DNA of 64,000 bases from an uncultured Planctomycetota bacterium (GCA_963849325.1 CAWKHF010000004.1:64001-128000); one strand, 5' to 3'. Positions 37,260-51,893 are shown, numbered from the stretch's first letter. The notes: a model not told the origin generated them from the letters alone. Numbers and translations are program-made.

Positions 37260-37295
37260 GATTGATCTCCCTGTGTTTGAGTTTGTGAAAGGGTT

Positions 37296-37523
37296 TCAGT
37301 CCATCCTGTCGATGAACATGAAGTTGGAGCAGGGCAGCGCACGCAGAACCCCTTCCTTCACTTCAACGTCAGCGACCTCGATGTAGCGGTCGTGGCGGTA
37401 GAGGACGTAGCACCGCACCGTCGCCGGGCACTGGACACCAGCCCGAATGCCGATGCGGGTGCTGACCCCGCCCTGTTCGATGACGACCTTCGCATCGGCC
37501 CGAAACTCGATCAGGTGCTTCAT
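37296..37523 (-). CDS. Small hypothetical protein
   Basis: MKHLIEF...; follows upstream stop by a few nt. Confidence 0.6.
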   Translation of the reverse strand: MKHLIEFRADAKVVIEQGGVSTRIGIRAGVQCPATVRCYVLYRHDRYIEVADVEVKEGVLRALPCSNFMFIDRMD

Positions 37524-37527
37524 GGCA

Positions 37528-37887: not shown

Positions 37888-37937
37888 GGTTACTGTCGCT
37901 CCTGCTCGTCGTGCGGTAGAAGGTCAGAAGCCGGTTG

Positions 37938-38339
37938 TCAGGCGTCCGGCTTGTCGTCGTCGCCCAGGCCCGGCGAGTAGCCGCAACCCTGGCACATGAC
38001 GGTCTTCAGGTCGCCCGCCTCGTGGGACGCCATGATGTCGCCGCATTCCGGGCAATCGTCGCCTTCGCCCGGCTCTTCCTTCTCCCGCTTGCGGACTTCA
38101 GCGAAGTACAGGTCTTCGACGTACTGCTCGGTCTGCGGGCGAAACGCCAGCCGCCTGTGACCGTATTTCTCGCACACCCCATCCACGATGGCCTCGAACC
38201 AGTCGTCGCACGGCTCGACCACCTGGCTGTAGGTCATGCCAGCCAGCGCTTCCTTGACAGCCGCCTTCAGGTTCGGGATCGGCTGCTCGCCGTGAATGAT
38301 CGCTTCGGCATCGTCGCAGGTCAGCTTGTAAAGGTGCAT
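37938..38339 (-). CDS. Hypothetical protein with C-terminal zinc ribbon
   Basis: GGAGGA RBS; CPECG...CQGCG. Confidence 0.7.
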   Translation of the reverse strand: MHLYKLTCDDAEAIIHGEQPIPNLKAAVKEALAGMTYSQVVEPCDDWFEAIVDGVCEKYGHRRLAFRPQTEQYVEDLYFAEVRKREKEEPGEGDDCPECGDIMASHEAGDLKTVMCQGCGYSPGLGDDDKPDA

Positions 38340-38379
38340 GGTTCCTCCTGCCCGTTGTGCTGCGCCAGTTGGTCGAGGG

Positions 38380-38670
38380 TTAGCTGTCCTTGTTCTTGAC
38401 CTTGAAGCGGCCCTTGTTGGCCTCCAGGTAGGCACGGGCAGCGGTAATCTGCTCGTCGCTGAGCAGGGCCACGGCGCACTCGTAAGGCATGGAAACCGGG
38501 AAGCGCAGGCCGTCGAAGTAGATAGACAGCCAGCCGCTCTTCTCGGCCACGGCGAAGCGGGGCGGCTTGCGGTTGGCCTCGGCCATCAGCCGCATCATCT
38601 CGTCGGCGCTGATCTTCCCGTCCCGGAACTGCTGGGTAATCTCTTCCTTGGTCAACTTCTTGTCTGCCAT
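38380..38670 (-). CDS. Small hypothetical protein
   Basis: Directly downstream of motif copy 38711. Confidence 0.7.
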   Translation of the reverse strand: MADKKLTKEEITQQFRDGKISADEMMRLMAEANRKPPRFAVAEKSGWLSIYFDGLRFPVSMPYECAVALLSDEQITAARAYLEANKGRFKVKNKDS

Positions 38671-38710
38671 AAGACCCTCAAGGAGTGGTGATTGTTCTTC
38701 CCTCTATCAC

Positions 38711-38735
38711 TGCACACCAGAAGCGAGAGCGTTCA
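38711..38735 (-). promoter_or_regulatory. Conserved upstream motif copy 1 (TGAACG-N14-GTGCA)
   Basis: + strand TGCAC accagaagcgagag CGTTCA GGATTT. Confidence 0.85.
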
Positions 38736-38740
38736 GGATT

Positions 38741-39154
38741 TCACTTGCGGTCGGGCAACTCGTAGGAACCGGGCAGGCGGTAGCGGGTCAAGCCCTTCAC
38801 CTGGACGGTTTCCAGGGCAGCCTCGATCTCGTCAAGCTGCTCGTCGGTGTAGCCGTCATTATCCTCGGCCATCTGCAAGAGGGTTCGCAGGTCATCCTTG
38901 CTGACGCCCAGCGGGTCACGCAAACGCTCAAGAGTCATCGCAAAGCCTTCCTCGCAAACAGGCCGCTTGCCTTCACCGGGATATGGGTCAGCACCCAGGG
39001 CCGTCAGCAACTCGGCAAACGCCTCAGCCTGGCCGTTCAGGTGGCCTTCCGTCCAAACGTCATCCACCTTCTGCGCCTCGCCCTGCTGTTCCTGGTCCTT
39101 CTCGACCTCAGCGAGCCGCTTGAACAACAGAGCCTTCAATTCATCGTTGGTCAT
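38741..39154 (-). CDS. Hypothetical acidic protein
   Basis: Lies between motif copies 1 and 2. Confidence 0.7.
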   Translation of the reverse strand: MTNDELKALLFKRLAEVEKDQEQQGEAQKVDDVWTEGHLNGQAEAFAELLTALGADPYPGEGKRPVCEEGFAMTLERLRDPLGVSKDDLRTLLQMAEDNDGYTDEQLDEIEAALETVQVKGLTRYRLPGSYELPDRK

Positions 39155-39192
39155 GGCCAAAACCCCCAGCAGTTACGTCTCCTCTCTATCAC

Positions 39193-39217
39193 TGCACGTC
39201 AAGGAAGAAGGCGTTCA
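39193..39217 (-). promoter_or_regulatory. Conserved upstream motif copy 2
   Basis: TGCAC gtcaaggaagaagg CGTTCA GGATT. Confidence 0.85.
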
Positions 39218-39421
39218 GGATTCTTCATTCACCTGCTTGCGGACGATCTTGCGGATGACGTGCGCCAGTCCCGTGCGGTCAGGGTGGCCCCTCGGCAGCC
39301 GGTGGGCGAAGACGAGGGCGAGACGCATCGTGAAGTCCAGATGCCGCCACGCCCACGCATAGCGCTTCGTTCGCCTGACCGTGCGGGCCTCGATCCGTGT
39401 CTTCCTCTTTGTTCGTGCCAT
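39215..39421 (-). CDS. Small basic hypothetical protein
   Basis: Stop codon is the TGA of motif copy 2. Confidence 0.55.
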   Translation of the reverse strand: MARTKRKTRIEARTVRRTKRYAWAWRHLDFTMRLALVFAHRLPRGHPDRTGLAHVIRKIVRKQVNEES

Positions 39422-39460
39422 GAGAGCGTCCAGAAGTAGTGATTTTCTCCCTCACTGATC

Positions 39461-39484
39461 TGCACGTCAGAGGGAGGGCGTTCA
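39461..39484 (-). promoter_or_regulatory. Conserved upstream motif copy 3 (N13 spacer)
   Basis: TGCAC gtcagagggaggg CGTTCA GGATT. Confidence 0.8.
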
Positions 39485-39535
39485 GGATTGTGGCCAGGCA
39501 AGAACGTCCCGGCTGGTCAGGCCATGCCCGCTCGC

Positions 39536-39793
39536 CTAGCCGAGAAAGTCCGACAACTGGAATTCCTCAATGGCCTGGGCGACTGTCATTTCCCGGTCGT
39601 CGTCCACGGGCAAGAGGGTGTCCCAGCGGCCCAGGTTGGCGAAGCCGATGATAAGCTCCAGGGCCAGCATGACCTTTTCGTTGACTGGCCAGATGCCGAT
39701 AAACTTGAAGTGCCTGCGAACTGCCGTGTGAAGGGGTAGCACGCCTGCCTTCCACGCTTCGGCCAGTTCTTCGGACGTGAGCTTTCTCTTCAT
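39536..39793 (-). CDS. Small hypothetical protein
   Basis: Tightly packed in minus-strand run. Confidence 0.65.
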   Translation of the reverse strand: MKRKLTSEELAEAWKAGVLPLHTAVRRHFKFIGIWPVNEKVMLALELIIGFANLGRWDTLLPVDDDREMTVAQAIEEFQLSDFLG

Positions 39794-39796
39794 GGA

Positions 39797-40093
39797 TCAA
39801 TACTCGTCAGGGAGCAAGATTGTGGTCGCCGCTCGGTGGCCATTGTCGTCTGCGGCCTCGGTGATGACCCACAGCTTCACGCCCTTCAAGGTCCGGTAGG
39901 CGGACAGAATGCGGTCGCCGTGGATCAGCGCCTCGTCGTTCAACTGCTGGTCCTCCTCGTTGACCTCGCCGTAGTCGCCGCTGGCATGGCGAGCGATGAA
40001 GAACTCGGCGGTCTGGCCGCTCGCCTCCATCGCCTCCAGAGCGCCAGGGGTGGCCGCAAGCCGCCCCAAGGGGAACTTCGCCGCAAGGCGCAT
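39797..40093 (-). CDS. Conserved plasmid/ICE-associated small protein
   Basis: FPLGRLAATPGA...RHASGDYG...NDEAL..G.RILSAY...WVITEA...TTILLPDEY. Confidence 0.8.
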   Translation of the reverse strand: MRLAAKFPLGRLAATPGALEAMEASGQTAEFFIARHASGDYGEVNEEDQQLNDEALIHGDRILSAYRTLKGVKLWVITEAADDNGHRAATTILLPDEY

Positions 40094-40103
40094 CGCTCAG
40101 CCC

Positions 40104-40325
40104 TCAATCAAGGAAGGTCACAAGGTCGCCGTCATACACCACGCTGCGCCCGACAAGTTCCGCCGCACTGCACTCCTCGCCCTCAAGCAAGTGCTGGAAC
40201 GCCCGATGACACATCGGCACCGGGATCACCCGCCCATCCTCTGCGTCGAGAAAGACGAGGACGAGGCTGCCGTAATCCCGCAGGTCAGCGATAGTGCCGG
40301 TGATTGCCTGGATCATCTCCTTCAC
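40104..40325 (-). CDS. Small hypothetical protein
   Basis: Overlaps upstream stop. Confidence 0.6.
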   Translation of the reverse strand: MKEMIQAITGTIADLRDYGSLVLVFLDAEDGRVIPVPMCHRAFQHLLEGEECSAAELVGRSVVYDGDLVTFLD

Positions 40326-40795
40326 CGGCCTTCGGGGAATAGGTCATCGACGCCGTTCCATAGTCGGGCTTTCTCGGCCAATGCCTCCGGGTCACGGCAC
40401 TTCCAATAGCCGCCGCCGTCCTTCACTTCGACCTCGGCAAGCCCCGCCTGCTGGATGCCATCGAGCAGGGCAATCATCGCCAGGTGGCAGCGGAGGAAGT
40501 TCTCCAGACCACCATGTTCGGGACGGCTTGCGGGCTGCGTGCAGCAAGTGAACGACCACTGCCAGCCCTCCACCGCCGGGAGCTTGCAGAACCCGAAGGC
40601 AGCAGGCTCGCAACCGTTGCCGAGCCAGATCGGGAAGCAGACCAGCGGGTGGGGCCGCACGATCTCGACCACCGGCCCCACCCGCTGAAAAGACAGTCCC
40701 AGGGCCAGCCGCCGCATTTCCTCGACCACCTTGCGCACCGCCTCGGTGTCGGACAGCTTGGTGGCCAGAGCGTAGCGGATCGAAAGTCCCATCAT
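40322..40795 (-). CDS. Hypothetical protein
   Basis: GGAG RBS; GLSIRY...GCE...WSFTCCTQ...H...LLD...V.D.GGYW. Confidence 0.7.
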   Translation of the reverse strand: MMGLSIRYALATKLSDTEAVRKVVEEMRRLALGLSFQRVGPVVEIVRPHPLVCFPIWLGNGCEPAAFGFCKLPAVEGWQWSFTCCTQPASRPEHGGLENFLRCHLAMIALLDGIQQAGLAEVEVKDGGGYWKCRDPEALAEKARLWNGVDDLFPEGR

Positions 40796-40899
40796 CGCAG
40801 GCCAAGCTCCCTTTCCAGCTTGTCAAGTTCCCGTTCGAGCAGGACCGCCCGCTCCCGGCTTTTCCGGCCTGGCGGCGAGAACGAGTCAGGCCCTCGATT

Positions 40900-41151
40900 T
40901 CACCGCCCGTCCGCAACGAAGTTGAAGTAGAAGCGGGGCGTGTGCTGGAACTCCAGCGACCCCTTCACCCCGTCCGCCTTCCGCCGGACCACCACGAGCG
41001 GGGCCAGGAAGCCGATGACCTCGAAATCCTGGGCAAGCTGCTGGGTGTCCCACACCTGGCCATGCTGCGCTTCCAGGGCCTCCCGGCTGCCGGGTTCTGT
41101 GTTGATCTCGGCCAGCCGCTCACGGCGGGCCGCTTCGGTCGGGTCGCTCAT
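40900..41151 (-). CDS. Small phage/plasmid-type hypothetical protein
   Basis: GGGAG RBS; WDTQQL..DFEV.GF.AP.VVVRRK.DG..GSLEFQH.PRFYF. Confidence 0.75.
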   Translation of the reverse strand: MSDPTEAARRERLAEINTEPGSREALEAQHGQVWDTQQLAQDFEVIGFLAPLVVVRRKADGVKGSLEFQHTPRFYFNFVADGR

Positions 41152-41167
41152 CGCACTCCCCTTCAAT

Positions 41168-41455
41168 TCAAGCCGAACGTCGGCCTTCCTTGCGGTTGTT
41201 GGCCTCGATCTTCCGGCGGGCATCCTCCGAGTTCGCCGCCCTGTTCCGCTGCGGGTCCAGACCCAGGACACGCCCGACGACCGCCTCGACCAGCTTGCTG
41301 ATCGTCCAGTATTCCGAGCGGGTCAACGGACGCTGCCGCAGCACGTCCATGCGCTGCCGGATGGCCTCGCACCAGGGGTCGTCGCCGGTCAGAAGACCGT
41401 GAAACTCAAGGGTCTGCCGCAGACCGGAAAAAGCCACGGCACGGGTGTAGCGCAT
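41168..41455 (-). CDS. Hypothetical protein
   Basis: GGAGGA RBS. Confidence 0.6.
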   Translation of the reverse strand: MRYTRAVAFSGLRQTLEFHGLLTGDDPWCEAIRQRMDVLRQRPLTRSEYWTISKLVEAVVGRVLGLDPQRNRAANSEDARRKIEANNRKEGRRSA

Positions 41456-41494
41456 CGGTCAGTTCCTCCAAATGGTTGTGTTGCTTTCTCGCCT

Positions 41495-42116
41495 TTACCT
41501 CTGGACTACCACGGTCAACATCAGGCCGAGGGCCTGAAAGCGCCTCCACGATTTTTTCCCGTGGTGCCCAGCCGCCTCGGTCGTCTCGGTTCTCGATGAA
41601 CTCGTCCAGGCAGTGGTCGCTGAACCAGCTATGAACCTCGGCCTCCCATGCTTCCGGCAAGTTCTTTTCCCGCCACATCTCGCTGCGGTAGTTGTCCAGC
41701 GTCTCCAGGTACTCCCTTTCGGAATAATCGCTCTCGTCCAGAATCGGGTAGTTTTCCAGGGCGTCCTTGATCCGGCAGAACTCCTCGAAAGCCGGGGTGA
41801 TCGTGCCATCGGCCTTGAAAACCCTGATCGAGAACCCGTCGATGTAGCCGACTGCCCAATGGCTGTGCCGCTCGAACACGAGATCGGGGTCGCCGCCCTC
41901 GCTGAACGGTCGGAGCCGGTCGTTGATCGCCTGCTCGTTGGACTGCTCCAAAAGTCCGGCGTCCCTGCTGCTCGTGTACCAGACGCACCAGCGGTCGGCG
42001 TCTTCGAGGTCGTAGCCCCGGTGCCAGGCGAAGCAGTCGAAGTCTCGCCAGTTCCCGGCCAGCGCCTTCCCAGCCGCCTCCACGTCAGTCCAGTCGATTA
42101 CCTGTGTGGTTGCCAT
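41495..42116 (-). CDS. Phage/plasmid-type hypothetical protein (frameshift near 41535)
   Basis: RDAGLLEQSN...HWAVGYID...LENYPILDESDYSERE. Confidence 0.7.
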
Positions 42117-42133
42117 CGCTCGCCTTTCCTCTT

Positions 42134-42565
42134 TCACCCTGCGTACTTGGCCTGGAGCCGGACCAGTTCCGCCCGCTCCGCAGTTTCCTGCTCGTTGGCG
42201 AGCCGTCGCTCGTACTCGCCCAGGACACCGTTCTGGTGCAGCCAACTCTGCAAGGCCCGCTCCACGTCCGAATAGGTGAAGCCGGGATCGCCCCAGCAGG
42301 GGTGGGCCAGCGTCATGCGCAGGAACCGGACCTTGCCCTCGGTGGCCGTGAAAAACTCACCGTAAAAGCCGTGCCGGTTGTAATGAGCGATGTGGCCGAA
42401 GGTCAGGGCCAGCCGCCGGTAGAACGTGTGCGGAAACTGCCGCTCGGCAAAGTCCGACTCCACGAACCGGATGAACCGCCGGGCGAACCGGGCCTTCTCC
42501 TCCGCATCTTCCCAGCGGGTCGGTGTGAACTGGTCTGCGGTGAAATCCTTGATGGTGCCGAACAT
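42134..42565 (-). CDS. Conserved hypothetical protein
   Basis: FYRRLALTFGHIAHYNRHGFY...GDPGFTYSDVERAL. Confidence 0.75.
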   Translation of the reverse strand: MFGTIKDFTADQFTPTRWEDAEEKARFARRFIRFVESDFAERQFPHTFYRRLALTFGHIAHYNRHGFYGEFFTATEGKVRFLRMTLAHPCWGDPGFTYSDVERALQSWLHQNGVLGEYERRLANEQETAERAELVRLQAKYAG

Positions 42566-42607
42566 GCAGCCCTCGGTAAGTCGTTGTTATTTCCCAACTG
42601 ACTTACC

Positions 42608-42632
42608 TGTACGCCAGGGCCGATGGCGTTCA
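42608..42632 (-). promoter_or_regulatory. Conserved upstream motif copy 4 (GTACA variant)
   Basis: TGTAC gccagggccgatgg CGTTCA GGAATT. Confidence 0.8.
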
Positions 42633-42699
42633 GGAATTCGCCCGTTTTTCACGGCTGCGATGTTCCTGTCATTGGCCAGCCGGAACCCGGATCGTCACC

Positions 42700-42936
42700 C
42701 TACAGCCCGATGGCCTTGCGCCAGTCCGCAGGAACCTTCGCCCTCGCCACCCGCTTGCACTTCGCCTTGAGGAAGTCCCTGGAAATCCCGGTCGTGCAGA
42801 CCGACCCGACCAGCCCCGCAATCGCCGTGGCCCGGCCCTCGAAGTGGTCCTTGCCGAAATGGTCCAGGTAGTAGCGGTTCGTGCTGGCGTCGATGGCGAG
42901 AAAGTCACCGTTGCTTTCCTGAAAGAAGACAATCAT
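42700..42936 (-). CDS. Small hypothetical protein
   Basis: GGGGA RBS; protein-like. Confidence 0.6.
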   Translation of the reverse strand: MIVFFQESNGDFLAIDASTNRYYLDHFGKDHFEGRATAIAGLVGSVCTTGISRDFLKAKCKRVARAKVPADWRKAIGL

Positions 42937-43248
42937 GCGGCATCCCCTAACTACGGCCCAGGTAGAAAACCTTCCTCACGCCTCCTCAGCCTCGTTGGTC
43001 AAAAAGAGGGCGGGCCTTGATTACGGTTCGGGGCCGGGCCTTACGCTTGCTCAGCAGCACCGTTGCCCTCCTGCACAAGCACCCGCCCCGCCTCCCCGGT
43101 GGTGCCAGAGGAGCAGGAGTACCCAATGGTCCCTCCCGCCAGCCCGGTCGATACCCCAGGGAAGTGTCTCTGTGTAAGCGGAAACGTGGCCGACCCCGGA
43201 CCATCCCCCACCCCCGCCCCGCTTGATCGCCCATGTCGGGGCAAACGA

Positions 43249-44190
43249 TCATGAGTGCGCCGCAGGTGCGCAGGCCGAGAACTGGCAGACGTTCTCCAGG
43301 GCGAGGCGCATCTGGCCGTCGGTGATCTTCCCGGCCAGGAAGTCCAGAATGTTCTCGGCCAATTCCCGGATCGGCCCCGGCTCGCCCTGCTCCTCGAAGA
43401 AGGTGCGGACCTCCCTCATCGTCCGAGCCTTGGCTCGCCCGCTGCCGATCTTCCTGTCCCGGACCTTCTTGCGAATGACCTCGGAATCGACCTTGCCGGT
43501 CGTCTGGTCGGTGGCCTCGGCCACCGCCTGCTGACGGGCGGGTTCGGGCAGTTCCACGAGGTCGAGGGCGGCGCTGATGGCCATGTCGCCCCGTGCCACC
43601 GCCTGCTGAATCGGCTGTGAGAGTCGCAAGGTCTTGCGCAACTGGCTGATGTGGGCGACCGACCTCTTGTAGAAATCGGCAATCCGCTGCTCCGTCCAGG
43701 CGAATTCCTCCCGGAGTCGGCGCTGGTTGTGGGCGTCGTCCACCGGAGTCGTTGCCGCCCGTTCGTTGTTCTCCACGATGTTGCGGACGAACGCCTCTTC
43801 CGGGTTGCAGTCCACGACCTTGCACTGCAACTTCACGGGGCTGTCCGGGCGCAGGACGCTGTTGATATGCCCGACCGCCTTGTACCGACCGTAGCCGCTG
43901 ACCAGGGCTACTTTCTTGTCCTCGATCCGACGCACCACGACCGGCTGCTGCTGGCCGTAGGTCAGTATCGAGTTCGCCAGCGCCTCGATCTCCTCCTGGC
44001 TGTGCGGGACTGCTCGCCCGTTATCGGCCTCGCTCACTACGATGTTCTCCGGCAGAATCGAGAACAGGTCGCCCCGTCCGATCTCACCGGCATTCAACTG
44101 CATCGCCATCTGCAAATCCTCCTGAAGTCGCAAGAAACCCTGCCGCTCGTCCCTCTGGCCGTCACCGGCAGGGTTGCGTTTCTTCGTCAT
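43249..44190 (-). CDS. ParB/RepB/Spo0J-like protein
   Basis: LANSILTYGQQQPVVV...VSGYGR...EN..R...HTH-like WTEQRIADFYKRSVAHISQL; alternative start 44109. Confidence 0.8.
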   Translation of the reverse strand: MTKKRNPAGDGQRDERQGFLRLQEDLQMAMQLNAGEIGRGDLFSILPENIVVSEADNGRAVPHSQEEIEALANSILTYGQQQPVVVRRIEDKKVALVSGYGRYKAVGHINSVLRPDSPVKLQCKVVDCNPEEAFVRNIVENNERAATTPVDDAHNQRRLREEFAWTEQRIADFYKRSVAHISQLRKTLRLSQPIQQAVARGDMAISAALDLVELPEPARQQAVAEATDQTTGKVDSEVIRKKVRDRKIGSGRAKARTMREVRTFFEEQGEPGPIRELAENILDFLAGKITDGQMRLALENVCQFSACAPAAHS

Positions 44191-44218
44191 CCCAGGCCCT
44201 TGCGGGCCACGCTCCTAC

Positions 44219-44243
44219 TGCACGCCAGACGGCTAGGCGTTCA
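44219..44243 (-). promoter_or_regulatory. Conserved upstream motif copy 5
   Basis: TGCAC gccagacggctagg CGTTCA GAAAAA. Confidence 0.85.
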
Positions 44244-44256
44244 GAAAAACCTGCGG

Positions 44257-45755
44257 CTATGCGAAGACATGACTTGCCGACCGGGAGCGGGCCAGCTTCA
44301 CGGCGAGGTCGAGAAGGAAGTCCTGAAAATCCCGGCTGTTGTCCGTGGCCCCGGTGACGTAGTGGGCCACTTCTTCGAGGCCGACCTTCACCAGACGATC
44401 CGGGAGCGCCTGCGGCCCGGCGAAAGCGGAGCTACCCCCGGCCAGGTCGGAGTTGATGAACACGGTCCCGTCTCGGTAGTAGCCGTTGAGCTTGGTGCCG
44501 CCGTCGAGGATGGACGTGAAGCAGCGGACAGGGGGCTTCGCCTTCCCATTCGTGAGGCCGACCGCTTCGAGCCAGTCCCATACGAGATCGACAGCGGCCT
44601 GCGCATCCGGGCTTGCCTGGGTGATCTCCCGGCCTACCATTTCATCCACCGACAGCACCTTGCCCGGCGTGTTGACCCCGTAGCGCTCGGCGGCGTTCAC
44701 AAGGTTCTCCGGGGCCACGACCGGAGTGTAGCCTTTGCGCTCAAGCTGGTTTCTCGTGCCTGCACCCGTCAGGACGGCCTTCTCCCCGGCCACCTGCGCC
44801 ATGCTTCCTGCCAGTTGCGCCGCTGGCGCTTCACGTCCTCGGCAGTGTCCTGGTACGAGGGCTGGAGGGAGCAGGCGTTGAAGCTGTACTCCCATACCGG
44901 CTTGTTGGTGCTGAGCAGGCGGCAGAAGAGCGTGGCCAAGATGCCCTTGTCACCGGAAGCCAACGCCCGACCGCAATGGTGCTGTACGTCCCAATCCGAA
45001 CACTTTCTGGCCTCGTCCAGCGTCAGGGTGTTCAAGTTGTAGTCGAACAGCGATTCGGTTTCCGATGCCGTGAATTCACGGACCCGGACGCCACGGCGAT
45101 AAATCACCGCTGCCTTCCGGTCGCCCAGGTTGCGGTTCTTCTTCGGGAGGATGGCCTTGTCCAACGACTCCGGCTCACTGAAGTGCAGGAACCACTTGCC
45201 GATGTTCTCGTAAAAGGCGAAGACCTCGCTGTTGAGTGGCACAAAGACACGGGTGTGGTCACGCCTGGCCCGGACCTGGCTTTCGTCCACGACCTCGATC
45301 TTCACGCCGGACCAGTCGCTTCGCTCTCGAATACTCCGGTCGATGGCGTTGCTGACGAACTCACGCAGCGCCAGGGCAACCTCGGTCCAGTCCTGGCGAC
45401 CGTATTCCAAGACGAAGCCCAGGTCTTCGCTGCTGGACCGGCTCGCCCCCGTGATTGGATCGGTGCCGCCGTACTTCACGACGACACGGGCAAACTGCTT
45501 GCTGGCCTGACTGTCGGCCACGGTCTGCGGACGGGTGCCGAATTCCAGGCGCAGCGTCCCGGCGAAGACCACCGGCGAGAGGCCGTGGCGCAGCAGGACG
45601 GCGACCCCGTGCTTGTTGCCGGAGCCGAACTGACCGATGACGCCCTGGTGACTCGACTTGTCCGCCAGGCTGACGCCCAAGACGGTGAATCCTTCGGGCG
45701 GACAGACGCCCACGTTCTCGATCTTGAGGAATACCCCCATTACAGTCTTCTCCAC
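44257..45755 (-). CDS. Circularly permuted GHKL-like ATPase with C-terminal zincin-like EExxH (frameshift near 44800)
   Basis: KIENVG and IGQFGSG precede REFVSNAID; C-terminal LEEVAHYVTGATD..RDFQ in second frame. Confidence 0.7.
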
Positions 45756-45784
45756 GAGGTAATTTCTTGACCCACGCCCTGTCT

Positions 45785-45809
45785 TGCACTCGATGCCGAT
45801 AGGCGTTCA
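45785..45809 (-). promoter_or_regulatory. Conserved upstream motif copy 6
   Basis: TGCAC tcgatgccgatagg CGTTCA GAAAAAT. Confidence 0.85.
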
Positions 45810-45823
45810 GAAAAATCCGAGCT

Positions 45824-46102
45824 TCACGCCTTCAGGCGAACGGAAACGTAGCAGTGGCAGTCCTGAAACTCTTCCGGCACACAAGGACGGCGAGGCAGCC
45901 GCTCTCTGCGCAACTTGGCATTCGAGTCCACGTCCCAGCCGGACATGGCAGCGGTTTCCAACGCATCGTCCAGTGCCTCGTCGGGGTTGTTGCCGATGCC
46001 GGTGAAGACAGCGGTGTAGCCCGTGCCGGACACGCCGCAGCCCTGGAAGTGCTGCTCGTGTTCGATGCCGTGAACAACGATCTCGTAGTCGGTTGGCTTC
46101 AT
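45824..46102 (-). CDS. Small hypothetical protein
   Basis: MKPTDYEIVVHGIEHEQHFQGCG...; ATG 9 nt after motif copy 7. Confidence 0.7.
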   Translation of the reverse strand: MKPTDYEIVVHGIEHEQHFQGCGVSGTGYTAVFTGIGNNPDEALDDALETAAMSGWDVDSNAKLRRERLPRRPCVPEEFQDCHCYVSVRLKA

Positions 46103-46111
46103 GGACTGATC

Positions 46112-46136
46112 TGCACACGAAGCCGGAAAGCGTTCA
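46112..46136 (-). promoter_or_regulatory. Conserved upstream motif copy 7
   Basis: TGCAC acgaagccggaaag CGTTCA GGAAAT. Confidence 0.85.
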
Positions 46137-46322
46137 GGAAATGGCAAGAAGAATCTGCAAGTCTCAGTCGCATGACACCGCTGAAAGTGCCGTTTCCGCC
46201 CGGTCTGTGAGACGGGTCGGACGGTATTTATCAATCAGGGGCCGTCACTGCCCGCCGCTTGCCGCTGGCGGTGAGAAACTTCGTTGAGACTCCCTTCGTC
46301 CGGCAAATCACCAACAAAATCC

Positions 46323-46347
46323 TGAACGGCCTGCTCGCTGGCGTGCA
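46323..46347 (+). promoter_or_regulatory. Conserved upstream motif copy 8 (divergent from copy 7)
   Basis: AAAATCC TGAACG gcctgctcgctggc GTGCA. Confidence 0.85.
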
Positions 46348-46390
46348 GAAATGGAGGAGGGCTGTCACCTTCTCCGAGAAGAACCGAACC

Positions 46391-46600
46391 ATGCGCACAT
46401 TCACCTACCGGGTGTACTTCACCATTTCCCCGACCACCTACTACGTCGTTGCGGGGAGGAATGCGAAGGCTGCTGTCTGGCGGGCCAGGCGATTAGAGCG
46501 GGCGCTTCGGGTCTGCAAGCGCCGGACGGCACCGCTCCAGGTAGCCAAGATCGAACGGCTCTACCGTCACGGAGCCGGGGCCAGGAGGGTCTACGCATGA
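46391..46600 (+). CDS. Small basic hypothetical protein
   Basis: Downstream of motif copy 8; ATGA overlap with a following frameshifted ORF at 46597. Confidence 0.55.
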   Translation: MRTFTYRVYFTISPTTYYVVAGRNAKAAVWRARRLERALRVCKRRTAPLQVAKIERLYRHGAGARRVYA

Positions 46601-46810
46601 TCGAGCGAGTGGTTGTCGAAACGGACGACGCCGACGAGCAGACGCTTGCGGCGGCGGTGCTGGAGAAGCGTGGTTGCACCGTCACCGAGACAAGCGACGG
46701 AACCTTGCCGTGCTGGTGCCGGATAGCCGGGATGCCGAAGAGCAAGTCACCGAGGCGCTAAACGATGCCGGGGTAGTCCGCTTCGTCTACCGGCTGGAAG
46801 AGGAAAATCC

Positions 46811-46835
46811 TGAACGGCCTCTCCTCTGACGTGCA
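46811..46835 (+). promoter_or_regulatory. Conserved upstream motif copy 9
   Basis: AAAATCC TGAACG gcctctcctctgac GTGCA. Confidence 0.85.
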
Positions 46836-46858
46836 AGAGAGGCAGGAGGAATCGAACC

Positions 46859-47032
46859 ATGCCAGACGTGACCAAGATCATCGCCTTCGAGCAGGGCGAC
46901 CTGGACGGGGCCGAGGTCATCGAGTTCTTTCAGGAACTCATCGACTCCGGCCTGGCCTGGCAGCTACAGGGCCACTACGGGCGGACGGCCCGGCGGCTGA
47001 TTGAGGCCGGTCTGTGCAGCCCCAGGGAATAA
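46859..47032 (+). CDS. 57-aa phage-type hypothetical protein (absent from ORF track)
   Basis: AGGAGGA RBS; MPDVTKIIAFEQGDLDGAEVIEFFQELIDSGLAWQLQGHYGRTARRLIEAGLC. Confidence 0.8.
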   Translation: MPDVTKIIAFEQGDLDGAEVIEFFQELIDSGLAWQLQGHYGRTARRLIEAGLCSPRE

Positions 47033-47038
47033 CCACCG

Positions 47039-47245
47039 ATGAATCGCTGCGAGAATGCGTCCACGGGCGGACAAGGCATCATCACGCCGCAGTGCTGGAA
47101 CAACCGGGCCTGCGTGACGCTCGAAGTCCGCTACCACGAGAACGAGCGGGACGTGCTGGGACTCTGCCTGGAATGCTGCGAGCGGGTGGAAGCCGATGCC
47201 CGGAGGCACGGCTACCTGACGAGGCGGGTTCGAGACGATTCTTGA
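47039..47245 (+). CDS. Small Cys-containing protein
   Basis: RCEN...QCWN...LCLECC. Confidence 0.6.
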   Translation: MNRCENASTGGQGIITPQCWNNRACVTLEVRYHENERDVLGLCLECCERVEADARRHGYLTRRVRDDS

Positions 47246-47267
47246 CCACTCTGCATCTTCGGGCGCA
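47243..47267 (+). promoter_or_regulatory. Possible degenerate motif copy (TGACCA-N14-GCGCA)
   Basis: Same spacing, ATTCT upstream, precedes 47312. Confidence 0.35.
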
Positions 47268-47311
47268 GCGAAGGCAACTGGCCTCAGCACTATTCTTGGA
47301 GGTTTTGATCC

Positions 47312-47626
47312 ATGATTCTGCGAGACGACAACAACGGAGTTGAGATCACCCTGGAATACGACGAGGACGGCTACCCCCTCGTCAACATCAGCCTGGGCGG
47401 GGGCTTCCAGGGCGACAACGACCGGCCCGCCGTCGAGGTCGTGCTGGACGGGGTAATGATCCACGATATGTTCGATGACGAGGACAAGCGCTGGGCTGAG
47501 GGACATTGTGCCCTGTGCGGCGAGCCGATCAAGCCGGGCGACAAGACCGACGAAGGCGAGTACGGCACGGTTCACCACAACTGCCCGGACTTTCAGGGCG
47601 ACGAAGAGGACGAGCCGGACGCCTGA
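47312..47626 (+). CDS. Acidic hypothetical protein with CxxC...HxxC
   Basis: GGAGG RBS; CALCGE...HHNC. Confidence 0.7.
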   Translation: MILRDDNNGVEITLEYDEDGYPLVNISLGGGFQGDNDRPAVEVVLDGVMIHDMFDDEDKRWAEGHCALCGEPIKPGDKTDEGEYGTVHHNCPDFQGDEEDEPDA

Positions 47627-47751
47627 CAACCGGCCAGAACCTTGCCCGGCGAGCCGATCCCGCCGGGCGAACCATGTGTCACCGTCACCCCGCCATGCCT
47701 TCGAGGGCGAGCCGAACTCTGCGGTCCCTCCTGCCTTCCTGCGTTCCGGGA

Positions 47752-48102
47752 TCACGCCCCGCCTGGTAGCTGCTGCTGACGCACGACGGCGCTGGCCTCC
47801 CTGCTCGGTGCGGCGTACAGGTCGCCGGTCAGGGCGTCAGCAACCAGCCAATGCTGGGCAGCCTCATCGGAGTTGCCCAGGTTGAGGCCCTCTTCTTCCA
47901 GCCAGCGGCCCACGTCGGCCCGGTGGATGAAGTCGAGGTACAGCCAGTTGTCGCACATCCCACAGGCGTAGGAAACGCCGTCGTCATAACACGCCTCATC
48001 GCCTGACGGCTCCCAAAACAGCGACACGAATCTACGACTGCCTGGGTAGCCGAAGGCGGCGAGGAATCCGGCGGGAAGCGTGAAGGGGGCTTTGTGGAGC
48101 AT
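47752..48102 (-). CDS. Conserved hypothetical protein
   Basis: AAGGA RBS; GY.G..RFV.L.W...GDE...DDG...NLG.SD..A.HWLV.D. Confidence 0.7.
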   Translation of the reverse strand: MLHKAPFTLPAGFLAAFGYPGSRRFVSLFWEPSGDEACYDDGVSYACGMCDNWLYLDFIHRADVGRWLEEEGLNLGNSDEAAQHWLVADALTGDLYAAPSREASAVVRQQQLPGGA

Positions 48103-48211
48103 GGGGGTTCCTTTTCGACCGAGAGCGGCCAGGACGGAGCCGAGGATGAAAAATGCCAGCGGTTACAGACTTCGCTGACCCGCCGAGGGATCAGACCGTA
48201 GTGCGGACAAC

Positions 48212-48243
48212 AACGAGAAAGGCGGGGAGGGCGATTCCCCGCC
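48212..48243 (-). terminator. Probable intrinsic terminator after DUF932 gene
   Basis: GGCGGGGA-7nt-TCCCCGCC stem followed by TTTCTCGTT on the minus strand. Confidence 0.55.
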
Positions 48244-48251
48244 TCGACCTG

Positions 48252-49199
48252 TCACCCCGCCATGTCGAGCGCTACTTCCAGGGCGTGCCGGTTCGTGTTG
48301 GCGCTGTCGCCGAACCAGAGTGAGTTGAGTCGGTTGTCCTCGCTGCGCCCACGGCTGTAGGTCAGCCACTCGCTGACGCCGTTGTAGGCCGACCAGTAGG
48401 TGCCCCGGATGGAGGGCAGGTTGTTGCCCCGGCCCGCCTCGGCCAAGGCCATGACTTCCTCCATGATGTTTGCCATCCGGGTGCCGGTGTCCTGATCGTC
48501 CTCGACCTTGAACACCGTCTTGACGTAGCGGCGCAGGTCGGTCTGGTTGATGCTCCGGCGGGCCAGCAGCCGGTACTGCTCGGCGGTGGCCTCGAATTCG
48601 GTGTTCGCCAGGTCCATGATTTCCCGGACGTTGGCCAGATTCTCCAGCACGTCCTTCGTATGCTTCAGCCGGATCAGCTTGCTGGTGTCGGAGCCGTGGG
48701 CCATCGCCAGGGTGTTGGCGCAGACGACCCTGACCGGCGTGAAGCCGCAGCGCACGGCGAGCGAGCCGTCGTGCCCGTGGGAGAGCAGGAGGAACTTCTC
48801 GACCGTATCGCCCTCGGCAATCACCAGCGGGTCACGGTTCAGCTTGGCCAGAACCCAAATGCGACTGCCCTGGCGCAGTGCGCCCGCCGTGTGCAGTGCC
48901 GCTTCCCTGGCGTCGAGGAAGGGCTGGAACCAGCCGAAGGCGTCCTTGTTCTGGAGCGGGGCGAAGCGGGGGCCGACGACTCCCAGCACTCTGGCGTCTG
49001 ACGTGCGGCGGACGGCCCGGTGATCGACCTGGGCCTGGGTGTCGGCGGTGACGAGCGACACCAGTTCGACCTCCCAATCGAGGCCCGACTTCCTGCTGGC
49101 CGCTGACCAGTCGTAGAGGTCGGCTTCGTCCAAGGCGGTCCCAAGCCGGTGCCAGGGCAGTTCCCCGAAGTAGGCCATCGTTTCGACTTCGTGAGCCAT
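48252..49199 (-). CDS. DUF932 (phage/plasmid TIGR03299-like) protein
   Basis: MAHEVE...PWHRLG...GLDWEV...LGVVG...QN...TAGAL...HDGS...TPVRVVCANTL...H...GTYW.AYN. Confidence 0.9.
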   Translation of the reverse strand: MAHEVETMAYFGELPWHRLGTALDEADLYDWSAASRKSGLDWEVELVSLVTADTQAQVDHRAVRRTSDARVLGVVGPRFAPLQNKDAFGWFQPFLDAREAALHTAGALRQGSRIWVLAKLNRDPLVIAEGDTVEKFLLLSHGHDGSLAVRCGFTPVRVVCANTLAMAHGSDTSKLIRLKHTKDVLENLANVREIMDLANTEFEATAEQYRLLARRSINQTDLRRYVKTVFKVEDDQDTGTRMANIMEEVMALAEAGRGNNLPSIRGTYWSAYNGVSEWLTYSRGRSEDNRLNSLWFGDSANTNRHALEVALDMAG

Positions 49200-49240
49200 C
49201 TGAGTTCTCCATGCGGGGTCGTTTTCTTCAACGCTTGTTC

Positions 49241-49265
49241 TGCACGCCAGTAGGCGAAGCGTTCA
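49241..49265 (-). promoter_or_regulatory. Conserved upstream motif copy 10
   Basis: TGCAC gccagtaggcgaag CGTTCA AAAT. Confidence 0.85.
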
Positions 49266-49330
49266 AAATAATGCAGCGCATTTCCTGGCGGTGAGGCAAG
49301 TCGCTGAAGCCCTCTGTTTCGGAATAATTC

Positions 49331-49355
49331 TGAACGGCTGTGCCGTTGACGTGCA
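49331..49355 (+). promoter_or_regulatory. Conserved upstream motif copy 11 (divergent from copy 10)
   Basis: ATAATTC TGAACG gctgtgccgttgac GTGCA. Confidence 0.85.
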
Positions 49356-49363
49356 GAAGGAGC

Positions 49364-50383
49364 ATGATTGCATTACCGCTCGCAGACAAGGAACGCCGCT
49401 CGAACACCACCGTCATCCGTGACCTGGACTGGTGCGACTACTGCCTGGTGTCCTTCTCCGGCGGCAAGGACAGCATCGCCTTGGCCCTGAGCCTGCTCAA
49501 GAAGGGCGTTGCCAAGGAGCGCATCATCCTCATGCACCAGCACGTTGACGGCGAGCCGGGTGTGAACCAGCCCTTCATGGATTGGCCCTGCACCGAGGGC
49601 TACTGCCGGACATTCTCGCAGGCGACCGGGATGCGTCTGCTCTTCCAGTGGCGGCACGGCGGCTTTCACCGGGAGATGTTGAAGCAGAACGCCATGATCG
49701 CCCCGGTTTCCTTTGAGTACCTGGGCGGCGGCATCGGCACGGCGGGCGGGGTGAGAGGAAAGATCAGCACTCGCCGCCTGTTCCCCCAGGTGACGGCGGA
49801 CCTGAGCAAGCGGTGGTGCAGCCCGTCCCTCAAGATCGACGTGGCCAGCATCGCCATTAACAACGAGCCGAGGTTCCGGGGCAAGCGCCTGCTGTTCCTG
49901 TCGGGCGAGCGCCGCCAGGAGAGCGCCGCCCTCAGCCGATATGCCGAGGCCGAGGAACACCGCACGCACACGAAGTCCCGGCACGTTGACCACTGGCGCA
50001 TGGTGATCGACTACACCGAGCAGCAGGTGTGGGACATCATGCGGGAGTACGGCATCATCCCGCACCCCGCCTACTGCCTGGGGTGGGGCCGGGTGTCCTG
50101 CCTGGCGTGTATCTTCGGACTGGCCGACCAGTGGGCCAGCGTGCGGCTGATCGTCCCGGACCTGTTCCACCGCATCGCAGAGTACGAGCGGCGCTTCGGC
50201 AAGACGATCCACCAAGGCAAGTCAGTGGTGGACCTGGCCGACAAGGGCACACCGTACCCGGCGTGCTGTGACCGGGAGCTTGTCGCCTTGGCGATGGGCC
50301 GGACCTACCCACTGGATCAGATCAAGACGGACGCCTGGACGATGCCCGCCGGTGCTTTCAAGCATTGCGGCGGTCCCACCTGA
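49364..50383 (+). CDS. PAPS-reductase-like (PP-loop adenine nucleotide alpha-hydrolase) protein
   Basis: VSFSGGKDS; RWCS..LK; GERRQES; HPAY..G..RVSCLACI. Confidence 0.85.
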   Translation: MIALPLADKERRSNTTVIRDLDWCDYCLVSFSGGKDSIALALSLLKKGVAKERIILMHQHVDGEPGVNQPFMDWPCTEGYCRTFSQATGMRLLFQWRHGGFHREMLKQNAMIAPVSFEYLGGGIGTAGGVRGKISTRRLFPQVTADLSKRWCSPSLKIDVASIAINNEPRFRGKRLLFLSGERRQESAALSRYAEAEEHRTHTKSRHVDHWRMVIDYTEQQVWDIMREYGIIPHPAYCLGWGRVSCLACIFGLADQWASVRLIVPDLFHRIAEYERRFGKTIHQGKSVVDLADKGTPYPACCDRELVALAMGRTYPLDQIKTDAWTMPAGAFKHCGGPT

Positions 50384-50391
50384 GAAAATCC

Positions 50392-50416
50392 TGAACGCTC
50401 CGCACCTTCGGGTGCA
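50392..50416 (+). promoter_or_regulatory. Conserved upstream motif copy 12
   Basis: AAAATCC TGAACG ctccgcaccttcgg GTGCA. Confidence 0.85.
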
Positions 50417-50441
50417 GTAGAGGCGGAAGGAAGATGGCATC

Positions 50442-50636
50442 ATGAGGACCACCGATCATTTCCGGGAATGGCTGCGGCAAGTTGACCTTGAGTTGACCAA
50501 GCGCTGCGGCCTGAGCCACGACGACCTGGCCGACCAGCATTGGCGGGACTGGCACAATGACGGCATGACCGCCGCCGAAGCTGCGTGCGAGTGTCTGGTC
50601 AACGAGGGATTGCCCGGCCTGGTCGGTGAAGAATAA
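50442..50636 (+). CDS. Small phage-type hypothetical protein
   Basis: F.EW...VD......GL...DL.D..WRDW...GMT..EAA. Confidence 0.75.
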   Translation: MRTTDHFREWLRQVDLELTKRCGLSHDDLADQHWRDWHNDGMTAAEAACECLVNEGLPGLVGEE

Positions 50637-50665
50637 GGGGAAACTACCTTGCCATAGCAATTTTC

Positions 50666-50690
50666 TGAACGCATCCCCGCATGGCGTGCA
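50666..50690 (+). promoter_or_regulatory. Conserved upstream motif copy 13
   Basis: AATTTTC TGAACG catccccgcatggc GTGCA. Confidence 0.85.
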
Positions 50691-50765
50691 TCACCTATAT
50701 TGGCCCCGCAAGGCCATGCGCCGAAGTTGAGCGCAGGCCGGAGCCTGTTCCGAAAGGAGGATCGT

Positions 50766-51107
50766 ATGACCAAGGTTCAGATCAAGACGGACGTTCAGCG
50801 CACTCACCGCCGATGGATCAAGAGTCACCCGAAGGCCACGCTGAACGACCTGAAGGAGTATCTCGAAGGGGTGCTGGATGAAGTCTTGACCTTCGACCAG
50901 GAGGCAACGATTGCCGACTACCAGGATGAGTTGAGCGAGGATGCGCTCGAATACCTCAGCGATTGGGGCGACCTTGCCGATCCCGTCATGTGTGATGACG
51001 AACCCGCAACTTTCGAGTACCGGGAGGGAAATCTGGAGGAGGATATTCAGAACGTGGAAGAGGCCATCGAGACGTTCGGTGGGTCGTTTCGGTTGCGGAC
51101 TCGGTAA
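50766..51107 (+). CDS. Highly acidic small protein
   Basis: AAGGAGG RBS; D/E-rich. Confidence 0.75.
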   Translation: MTKVQIKTDVQRTHRRWIKSHPKATLNDLKEYLEGVLDEVLTFDQEATIADYQDELSEDALEYLSDWGDLADPVMCDDEPATFEYREGNLEEDIQNVEEAIETFGGSFRLRTR

Positions 51108-51455
51108 CTCGCCAGCCACGACGATTAGGCCGACCAGCCGTTGCGGTCCCTGGTGGCGATGAGGACGTGAGCGCCCCGAAACTCCACCTGAATGCCTCGT
51201 CAACGAGGAACTGCCCGGCGTGGTCGGTGACGATTCGTGGAAAACATGAACGACTCGCCAGCAGGCGTGCAGGCATCGTATGACGTTGCCGCAGTACATT
51301 CGCTGGAAGGGCCTTTCCTGACGCTGCTCTTTGGTAAACGAGCGCCAAGTGCGGCTCGCCACCGTTGAACCCGGCCAGAACCGAATCTGCCTCATGGGTG
51401 CCCACACCTTCGAGGCGCTGGTGTCGAGCGGGGAAATCGTGGAGGAGTATCGAGG

Positions 51456-51893
51456 ATGGGAATAGGCATTCGCACGATCACCTGCGGCCTCCACAAGCGC
51501 TACGTCTTGATGGATCACCTTGAACGCTTCTGGACCGGCGAAGAATGGACGCACGATCTTAGCAAGGCGCTGCGCCACGCCACGATCCTCGGCGCTGGTG
51601 AGGAATTCCAGCGGATCATGCAGGCGCATTATCAGGACAAGTCCGTGCGCACCTTCGAGGCAACGATCAAGGTCCGGGTCTTCACCGACCGGCCCTTCGA
51701 CGTGGAAGCTCTCCGGGATTACCTGGAGCGGGCGAGCCGCTTCTCCCAGGACACCGAGCGGATGGGCGACGGGCCGGTGACTGGTTGCCTGGTGTTGCAG
51801 CACGCCGACTACAGCGTGCTGAAGGAAATCAATCCCGACCCGTACCTCCTGGCCGAGCCAGAAAGCCGTCCCATCCCGCCCGGCGCTCCGTGA
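51456..51893 (+). CDS. Hypothetical protein
   Basis: GGAGGAG RBS; protein-like. Confidence 0.7.
   Translation: MGIGIRTITCGLHKRYVLMDHLERFWTGEEWTHDLSKALRHATILGAGEEFQRIMQAHYQDKSVRTFEATIKVRVFTDRPFDVEALRDYLERASRFSQDTERMGDGPVTGCLVLQHADYSVLKEINPDPYLLAEPESRPIPPGAP

Follow-up and report, generated by a model that had tools for sequence, protein, structure and literature searches.

A private two-box word, best read as a promoter-type signal, on an integrated island of an uncultured Planctomycetota bacterium

Introduction

What is the function of a short DNA word that recurs ahead of small genes on a mobile island, and which protein reads it? The question is raised by a stretch of 64,000 nucleotides (nt) from an uncultured Planctomycetota bacterium (GCA_963849325.1, CAWKHF010000004.1:64001-128000), here called the window, in which copies of the bipartite word TGAACG-N14-GTGCA head the genes of an array at positions 38711-51271. 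Coordinates without a contig name are window positions. A preliminary description had listed 13 copies, each pointing at a downstream gene, and had proposed that they are promoters for a dedicated sigma factor or activator, with a dimeric-protein site or a cassette recombination site as alternatives. The array, of anti-restriction and establishment-like genes, is carried by an element that is integrated as an island. The word is best read as a promoter-type signal that would head many small genes of this kind, and both sequence and comparison give good support to its reading as a dedicated promoter set.

If this reading is correct, such islands would offer ready-made strong and co-regulated promoters, probably orthogonal to the rest of the cell and with natural variants, in a bacterial group for which, to our knowledge, few promoters and genetic tools have been described. 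It would become testable how an island switches on some 30 establishment and anti-restriction genes in hosts with more than 100 sigma factors, as would the choice between a borrowed host sigma factor of the extracytoplasmic function (ECF) type and an island-borne reader, and promoter-bounded modules would provide a simple picture of the shuffling of gene arrays between islands. The principle itself is not new; private regulons on mobile elements are already known.

A word private to 12.6 kb of the genome

The exact pattern TGAACG-N14-GTGCA was found 12 times on the two strands of the window; 100 dinucleotide-preserving shuffles averaged 0.05 exact matches, with one at most. Relaxing the pattern to N13-15 and GTRCA added two variants, at 39461(-) with N13 and at 42608(-) with GTACA. 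The resulting 14 copies all lay within 38711-51271, a distance of 12.6 kb, and the 13 copies listed previously (11 exact matches and the two variants) were all recovered at the same coordinates and on the same strands.

The source genome, designated G000, comprises 8,163,468 bases in 14 contigs, in an assembly that is 84.7% complete, and the window corresponds to C4:64001-128000. Genome-wide, the exact pattern occurred 12 times in C4:102711-115271 (window 38711-51271) and six times elsewhere; none of the latter (0/6) had the extended flanks. A 45-column weight matrix was built from 13 copies; the copies' own scores of 29.2-51.4 are circular, since these copies are the training set. The best score anywhere else in the genome was 18.9, inside an open reading frame (ORF) at 53206, and the gap between the scores of the copies and this next-best value indicates that the word is private to the 12.6 kb. 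An exact copy at 51247-51271(+), just past the end of the stretch described earlier, had been missed.

Taken together, the 35 copies found in five genomes spell AAAATCC-TGAACG-(9 free)-CTGGC-GTGCAG in their conserved columns and then continue into a loosely purine-rich stretch; the extended consensus proposed from the window held over this larger set. GAAC was present in 35 of 35 copies, with an A/T tract and CC or TC ahead of the box. Within the window the spacer was N14 in 13 of 14 copies and N13 in one, CGT stood at the -10 place in 10 of 14, and GTGCA was constant apart from a single GTACA. The distance from AAC to CGT was 14 nt and that from AAC to GCA was 17 nt.

Orientation and distance to genes

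Genes were called by third-position GC (GC3). All 14 copies lay on the same strand as the following GC3-supported gene. The start codon lay 40, 38, 39, 42, 28, 29-44 and 9 nt from GTGCA for copies 1-7 and 43, 23, 41, 8, 25, 75 and 184 nt for copies 8-14, numbered from left to right. Accordingly, 13 of 14 copies were located 8-75 nt ahead of a supported start, as had been described for the 13 copies then listed. A mechanical first-ORF test was non-discriminating in this high-GC DNA, since 28 of 35 sites in the opposite-direction control had an ORF within 80 nt; the orientation claim therefore rests on the GC3 gene calls.

Several copies began a few bases past the stop codon of the preceding gene, and two pairs were divergent, 46112(-)/46323(+) and 49241(-)/49331(+). 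In the second pair (copies 10 and 11) the A/T tracts were only about 41 nt apart, which leaves no space for separate promoters upstream of both words; on this ground the words themselves are argued to be the initiation signals. The messages from copies 7 and 11, whose start codons are the closest to GTGCA, may be leaderless, in which case the C of GTGCA would be at about -10. A search for RNA runs containing 44000-51500 listed none; one soil run, guessed to be RNA, contained 8% of the sequence words as contigs.

The general promoter of the host appeared to be ordinary. Many of the 92 predicted tRNA genes of G000 were preceded, as judged by eye, by TTGAC/TTGC-N17-TAnnAT-like sites, and these classical sites indicate that the word is something else. 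The window held no tRNA genes; outside it, dense tRNA arrays of about 7-13 genes each were seen at C4:433.7-435.1 kb, C12:838.4-839.5 kb and C1:515.6-516.1 kb.

Two boxes are conserved in other genomes

The same island with the same word was carried by four other genomes, in which the copies clustered only within the island. In G002, of the same genus, the syntenic region was about 85% identical and contained nine relaxed-word copies in 12.6 kb; in G579 and G592, of another genus (g348), identity was about 84%, with seven and eight island copies, respectively; and G003 had two copies on an 8 kb contig. Outside the islands, matches were scattered and single, at about the rate of a reversed-pattern control. 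Those in the loci L015, L016 and L018 were dismissed as chance, being isolated single sites, with those of L015 and L018 inside ORFs. At 25 DUF932 loci elsewhere in the phylum (at most 41% identical) no copy was found, the one weak match scoring 12.1.

Conservation was assessed in 11 orthologous copy pairs, which share window copies and are not independent. The -35 box was identical at 82 of 88 positions (93%) and the -10 box at 58 of 66 (88%), followed by YTGRC (43/55, 78%) and the A/T tract (66/88, 75%), whereas the 9 nt spacer core was identical at 51 of 99 positions (52%) with its length kept. In alignments of orthologous intergenic regions the boxes were retained while spacers and flanks changed, the flanks with insertions and deletions; some G002 copies had decayed, one lacking the -10 box and two reading GTGCG. 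Conserved boxes around a free spacer of constant length are typical of a two-box site that a protein reads. The existence of the copies, their privacy to the island, their orientation and the conservation of both boxes were all replicated in the other genomes.

Related islands carry other private words

Pieces of the island were detected by DNA search in 67 of 201 genomes of the family. Among these sister islands, that of G512 carried CCTGAACG-N16-GTCAAC, with four of five genome-wide matches inside the island; that of G539 carried TGAACC-N14-CGGTCY (5/6 inside); that of G529 carried AATGAAACACCY (13/15 inside); and that of G541 carried AACYGTACCAAG, ending 7-10 nt ahead of ATG (10/11 inside). 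Three further words were recorded at the locus only: a G529-type word in G519 (L057), with seven copies by eye among nine core matches, GTTAG-N3-GTACCAGA in G587 (L049), with four copies, and GTTAAA-N4-TTGTACC in a second G003 island (L056), with seven. A repeated word in L052, GCACCCGC, was rejected as coding sequence. There were thus at least seven island-specific words, and privacy was checked genome-wide for five types. An extra copy of the G529 word was noted at C10:1042743 of that genome.

Four word types had a bipartite architecture with an AAC-containing -35 box, those of G512, G539 and G529 sharing the architecture of the window word. The G512 and G539 words have GTC in the -10 box, as in ECF promoters, in which this box has a CGT or GTC core, with 17 nt between AAC and GTC by manual count. 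Three words were compact, about 16 nt long, with TTAAC or GTTAG adjoining GTACC. The window word was present in two genera (g1 and g348) and G539, itself in g348, had a different word, which indicates that the word tracks the island and not the host genus.

A dedicated ECF-type sigma factor as the probable reader

We put at roughly 55% the probability that a dedicated alternative sigma factor of the ECF type uses the 14 copies as promoters. In form the word is closest to ECF17- and ECF31-type promoters, for which the relevant part of a published survey gives TGAAC(C) at -35 and CGT at -10 (PMC7826278). Like ECF promoters, it is bipartite, with an A/T tract and then an AAC-containing -35 box, a G/C-containing -10 box, a free spacer of fixed length and a small dedicated target set. 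The A/T tract, CC, TGAAC and G would form a -35-like box and (C)GTGCAG a -10-like box, 14 nt apart, to which RNA polymerase would be directed by the dedicated sigma and not by the housekeeping sigma. About 16 kb with roughly 30 small genes would be organised by the set as some 14 transcription units under common control, and these could be gained, lost or swapped as promoter-plus-gene modules, exchangeable because each unit carries its own copy of the word. We infer from the sequences that transcription would start at the copies and that the reader would be an ECF-type sigma, and any identity proposed for that reader is of the same kind; it may be host-encoded or island-encoded. The proposal of a dedicated sigma or activator promoter stands as far as a private, oriented, two-box signal of promoter type is concerned, but no sigma or activator for it emerged from the candidates examined.

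A number of findings weigh against such a sigma. The usual spacing from AAC to the -10 core in ECF promoters is 16-17 nt, and the 14 nt from AAC to CGT in the window word falls below this norm. The comparison with ECF promoters made previously is strengthened by the sister words, which have an AAC-containing -35 box of this kind and, in two cases, the 17 nt distance. Unlike ECF promoters, the window word has GTGCA as its constant letters and all of its targets on one mobile island. A consensus scan of 36000-54000 found no sigma-70-like promoters, compared with 1.9 ± 1.4 in shuffles, which speaks for the word as the promoter; zero is, however, within two standard deviations of the shuffles and is not significant alone. 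No cognate sigma or anti-sigma was recognised, and no sigma gene of G000 had a convincing copy upstream. The best two-box score, 17.8 (C10:290635-292707), came from a site with a good left box but no GTGCA, so that a classically autoregulated ECF sigma is not visible in this 84.7% complete assembly. The LRR-kinase-sigma-GYF block that adjoins the array (described below) was precisely absent from the syntenic region of G002. Homologues of its sigma at E<=1e-15 numbered zero in G002 and one, at 46%, in G592, and G579 gave a single fragmentary match (53% over 73 residues). The reader was not found among the island ORFs or the sigma-70-family candidates examined. Finally, a word that tracks the island and not the genus is easier to explain with an island-borne reader, and none was recognisable.

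Candidate reader proteins

G000 yielded 110 and 114 matches to sigma-70 regions 2 and 4, and 133 sigma ORFs in a local profile. In C4:64-142 kb the sole sigma-70-family ORF was a kinase-linked ECF sigma (Pfam Sigma70_ECF) at 55971-56801(-). It belongs to a neighbouring block, 54195-58726, in which the minus strand encodes a leucine-rich repeat (LRR) protein, a Ser/Thr kinase (54709-55974) and the sigma, and the plus strand a GYF protein (57044-58726). This block matches the kinase-linked ECF groups that have been described as exclusive to Planctomycetes (Casas-Pastor et al. 2021, PMC7826278), whose target promoters, in the passages of that survey that deal with them, are stated to be not conserved or predictable. 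The adjacent sigma and kinase were rejected as the general reader; the sigma is a poor candidate because it is missing in three of the four other word-carrying genomes. Its own gene had no word upstream, whereas a cognate ECF sigma is usually encoded near its targets and often has the same promoter ahead of its gene. This argues against counting the word among ECF promoters proper, but not against its working in the manner of one.

The closest homologue of the adjacent sigma (66-67%) was beside the G512 island, and another (54%) was beside the G587 island; sigma-kinase(-GYF) blocks homologous to that of the window adjoin both of these other-word islands. The DNA-contacting regions of the G000 and G512 sigmas were almost identical and the -10 boxes of the two islands differ, so that at most one of the two words belongs to these sigmas. 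Upstream of the adjacent sigma was GACAACC-N16-GTCAAG, which resembles the G512 word and not the window word. A lead from these comparisons is that sigmas of this type could be the reader of the G512 word, not of the window word.

A profile built from the 133 sigma ORFs of G000 detected no sigma in the same-word islands, and a weak match in L053 was rejected as resembling a transposase helix-turn-helix. The 280-aa ORF at 52985-53827(-) was also rejected as a sigma (Sigma70_r4_2, E=1.9; a chance LPxxxR-like stretch). This protein had only three relatives among 5.8 billion proteins, its Atlas neighbours were unnamed viral clusters, and it was conserved in the G002 and G579 islands, which carry the window word, and had no word upstream. 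Two units headed by the word have a single product each, a very basic protein encoded at 39215-39421 and 46391-46600, respectively; their predicted folds, with pLDDT (predicted local distance difference test) values of 69 and 64, matched no structure at E<=0.001. One weak row from these folds, for an RNA-polymerase-interacting protein (E=0.54), was not taken as evidence.

Alternative explanations

In one rival view the signal is of promoter type but would be read by an island-encoded specificity protein outside the recognisable sigma-70 family, such as a very divergent minimal sigma or a polymerase redirector, that co-evolves with the word and gives each island lineage an orthogonal system. 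The occurrence of one word in both g1 and g348 and of another inside g348 (G539) is in line with this view, as are the number of island-specific words (at least seven, with five types checked private), the three compact words, of which that of G541 ends 7-10 nt before ATG, unlike a -35/-10 pair, the lack of a host sigma gene with the word upstream, and the many island ORFs without a family match. It is nevertheless considered unlikely: no candidate protein emerged, the local sigma profile was empty in the same-word islands, the low-confidence models of the two small basic proteins were without structural match, and the 280-aa protein at 52985-53827 had three relatives and no informative neighbours, while more than 100 host sigmas could supply different readers for different islands. 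A broader proposal, which can be offered only tentatively, is that the islands form a family with lineage-specific words, each read by an unrecognised island-borne minimal sigma or polymerase-redirecting factor; equally tentatively, such islands would run their establishment genes on an orthogonal channel of their own, independent of the 100-plus sigmas of the host. An improbable explanation is that the word is a regulator site, either a box for a class II-type activator that takes the place of the -35 or a near-palindrome to which a dimeric repressor would bind, overlapping promoters read by another factor in the manner of AcaCD boxes or ArdK sites. TGAACG differs from the reverse complement of CGTGCA at one position, so that the half-sites are one position short of a palindrome; the G539 word has a 6-8 bp inverted repeat, ACCGGG...CCCGGT, in three of six copies; and the island has a gene for a ParB/KorB-like protein. 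There are also precedents for oriented regulator boxes spread over a whole element, as reported in part for AcaCD (PMC4207636) and for the conserved upstream repeats (CUP) of IncN plasmids (PMC5371602). However, the mismatch between the two halves fell on one and the same position in 35 of 35 copies, and only the upstream half had the A/T tract and CC beside it, an asymmetry that weakens the dimeric-protein site put forward earlier. There was no classical -10 after the box, which an activator working with the housekeeping sigma would require, and in the G512 word the upstream half is kept while the downstream half and the distance differ, which fits two separately read boxes better. The ParB-like gene was missing from a 20 kb G592 locus with at least seven word copies (nine matrix matches), and no FlhC/FlhD-type or other regulator family was detected among the island ORFs scanned.

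It is very improbable that the word acts as a nucleic acid, whether as a recombination site or by forming a hairpin, either in RNA or in single-stranded DNA during transfer, for example as a single-strand promoter of a conjugative leading region. Homology-block ends in comparisons with G002, G003, G592 and G579 did cluster near the copies, 21 of 51 being within 60 nt of a copy centre compared with 9.75% of the region, and continuous homology spanned 10 of 26 boundaries with a copy compared with 35 of 57 without. The enrichment of breakpoints is indirect support at most for the cassette recombination site of the preliminary description, and it is equally expected from module gain and loss or from ordinary short-repeat homology. 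Our reading of the clustering is that promoter-plus-gene modules would be the units of exchange, with no dedicated recombination site; ordinary recombination between short repeats may possibly assist this exchange. Spacers paired with their own downstream 35 nt at -7.87 kcal/mol compared with -7.16 kcal/mol for those of other copies (permutation p=0.009 over 35 non-independent copies), but the effect was gone in the window alone (p=0.13), and fold z-scores averaged -0.57, with 3 of 35 below -2, so that a hairpin or an anti-Shine-Dalgarno role has weak evidence behind it. Integron arrays have attC hairpins, an integrase beside them and cassettes that are mostly promoterless and share one orientation. 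Here, in contrast to such arrays and to a strand transferred singly, copies occurred on both strands with divergent genes; the window ORFs scanned included no integron-type integrase, and the nearest tyrosine recombinase was about 12 kb past the window.

Comparison with known systems

The array was compared with several systems in which repeated sites serve the genes of one element. Phages and mobile elements can have promoter sets read by their own sigma or polymerase, which is recognisable in the element. As in such sets, near-identical promoters were confined to one element and related elements had different words; unlike them, the islands examined encoded no recognisable sigma or polymerase. 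In the Frpo type of plasmid promoter, transferred single-stranded DNA folds into a long imperfect hairpin, which restores a housekeeping promoter in double-stranded form. The array differs in having no long hairpin (word plus 35 nt, folded with DNA parameters), genes on both strands and boxes that are not of the housekeeping type. It shares with plasmid leading regions, where the source describes Frpo-type promoters and anti-defence islands (PMC11541004), the repeated promoters and the presence of ArdC (in the sister islands), ParB-like, DUF932 and methylase genes. Unlike conjugative leading regions, the stretches scanned had no relaxase or type IV secretion genes.

According to the part of the report concerned, the CUP repeats of IncN each contain a putative ArdK site and a promoter with ordinary -35 and -10 elements, head operons in one orientation and are implicated in rearrangements between operons by homology (PMC5371602). 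In both systems a repeat stands at the 5' end of anti-restriction or establishment operons, 14 copies heading about 14 units here. In contrast to CUP, the units of the window are on both strands, the core is about 37 nt, the boxes are not of the housekeeping type, and no ArdK-like regulator is known for the island, although no search aimed at ArdK was made. AcaCD and SetCD are the master activators of regulons on IncA/C plasmids and SXT/R391 elements (PMC4207636, PMC4344509); for AcaCD, the portion of the source in question records 17 peaks in intergenic regions and a class 2 activator profile (PMC4207636). These systems resemble the array in their element-wide, oriented intergenic boxes, rare in the host chromosome, and in their divergent two-box pairs. 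They differ in that AcaCD is an FlhDC-family activator that works with ordinary polymerase at class II promoters, whereas the downstream box of the window word is as strongly conserved as the upstream one. No FlhDC-family activator was present in the Pfam, PHROG or NCBIfam matches of the 83 window ORFs, a scan that very divergent proteins could escape. The array was not placed among the CUP or AcaCD systems because their defining features were lacking; it was classed as a regulon private to one mobile element and served by ECF-like promoters, the unusual features being the alternative private words and the lack of a recognisable reader.

Units headed by the copies

The leftmost part of the array is on the minus strand. 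Copy 1 (38711-38735, exact) heads a run of genes from 38670 down to about 34230; the TGA stop of the upstream gene is 6 nt ahead of its A/T tract, and orthologues were retained in G002, G003 and G592. Copy 2 (39193-39217, exact) heads a lone gene, 38741-39160, encoding an acidic protein of 139 aa, which is missing in G002, where another small gene is located between two word copies. The sequence GTGCAGTGATAGAG is common to copies 1 and 2, as had been described. In this subfamily (38660-38710 and 39160-39192, minus strand) a leader of about 45 nt, GTGCAGTGATAGAGGGAAGAACA.TCAC.ACT..., is shared besides the word. Because the same leader recurs in G002 and G592, duplication of whole promoter-plus-leader modules is suggested. 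Copy 3 (39461-39484), the N13 variant, heads 39215-39421, which encodes one of the very basic proteins (68 aa); its G002 orthologue has an N14 spacer and GTGCG.

Copy 4 (42608-42632, minus strand), the GTACA variant, heads a unit of eight genes from 42565 down to 39536. Orthologues were found in G002, G003, G592 and G579, with GTGCA at this place in G003. The leader of the unit (42560-42607, minus strand) contains an inverted repeat, GTAAGTC...GACTTAC, that is conserved in G002 and G003 and may form a leader hairpin; similar leaders were seen in G592 and G579. Within the unit, the ORFs 41168-41455(-), of 95 aa, and 40900-41271 overlap, and the 95-aa frame is split over two frames in G002 (L012 3184-3467); one of the two calls may not be a real gene. 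An Atlas search with 40322-40795 returned unnamed clusters only.

Three further exact copies complete the minus-strand series. Copy 5 (44219-44243) heads the ParB-like gene at 43249-44190 (ParB_N and HTH_ParB domains) and then 42700-42936; its G002 orthologue has retained boxes, an altered spacer and indels in the flanks. Copy 6 (45785-45809), which was outside the coverage of the G002 alignment, heads 44769-45755 (328 aa, phrog_8203) and 44257-44895 (212 aa). Copy 7 (46112-46136) precedes a gene at about 45824-46102, with the ATG 9 nt past GTGCA, and is divergent from copy 8 (46323-46347, plus strand, exact). The latter heads 46391-46600, for the second very basic protein (69 aa), and reads GTGCGT in the G002 orthologue.

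Copy 9 (46811-46835, plus strand, exact) heads 46859-47032 (DUF7417), 47039-47245 and 47312-47626, and its orthologue was retained in G592. Copy 10 (49241-49265, minus strand, exact) heads the gene of the DUF932/TIGR03299 'phage/plasmid-like' protein (48252-49199) and then 47752-48102. Its G002 orthologue no longer has the -10 box but keeps the leader, and the copy is retained in G579. Back to back with it, copy 11 (49331-49355, plus strand, exact) heads the gene of a PAPS-reductase-like protein, at 49340-50383 in the family scans and starting at about 49364 with an ATG 8 nt past GTGCA. The remaining copies are on the plus strand: copy 12 (50392-50416, exact) heads 50442-50636 (DUF5419), copy 13 (50666-50690, exact) heads 50766-51107, encoding an acidic protein of about 113 aa, and copy 14 (51247-51271) has an exact core with a weak A/T flank and the lowest matrix score, 29.2, its nearest supported gene being 184 nt on (51456-51893, then 51912-52781). 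The other ORFs of the word-bearing stretch encode mostly small, often acidic proteins with no family.

Gene content and surroundings of the island

Further left of the array, the window carries an IS66 transposase. Past its end are DNA methylases and the tyrosine recombinase, at C4:139993-141759. The stretches scanned with the family libraries had no match to relaxase, type IV secretion or virion families. In the sister islands, ArdC-like genes, integrases, a RuvB-like ATPase and an RNA-repair set were present. The RNA-repair set of the G529 island (L061, G529:C10:1031000-1050999, positions 555-11168) comprises an RNA ligase, HD/AAA_33 kinase-like proteins, Thg1, two RlaP and a PNKP-type ligase. 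In the window, a ParB N-terminal domain fused to a Dam-type adenine methylase is encoded at 30487-31602(+), adjoined by a pRiA4 ORF3-like gene at 31690-32553.

Two distant paralogues of 660-670 aa without a family or PDB match, 60184-62175(-) and 20334-22358(-), flank the region. Both contain an xDLDRHSG stretch followed by NGS-H/R, which may resemble primase-polymerase motifs. PDB sequence searches with the 663-aa and 289-aa proteins returned nothing.

Of five genomes of the same genus that were probed, only G002 showed synteny with the window, over about 75 kb; G001, G004 and G008 had little of the region. Pieces of the left part (window 1-20000), whose genes look ordinary, for example those at 3527-4818, 12266-12732, 15706-15950 and 19241-19650, were found as several copies in G009 and had a second occurrence on G002:C5. 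This recurrence suggests that the whole window may be part of a large accessory, partly repeated region.

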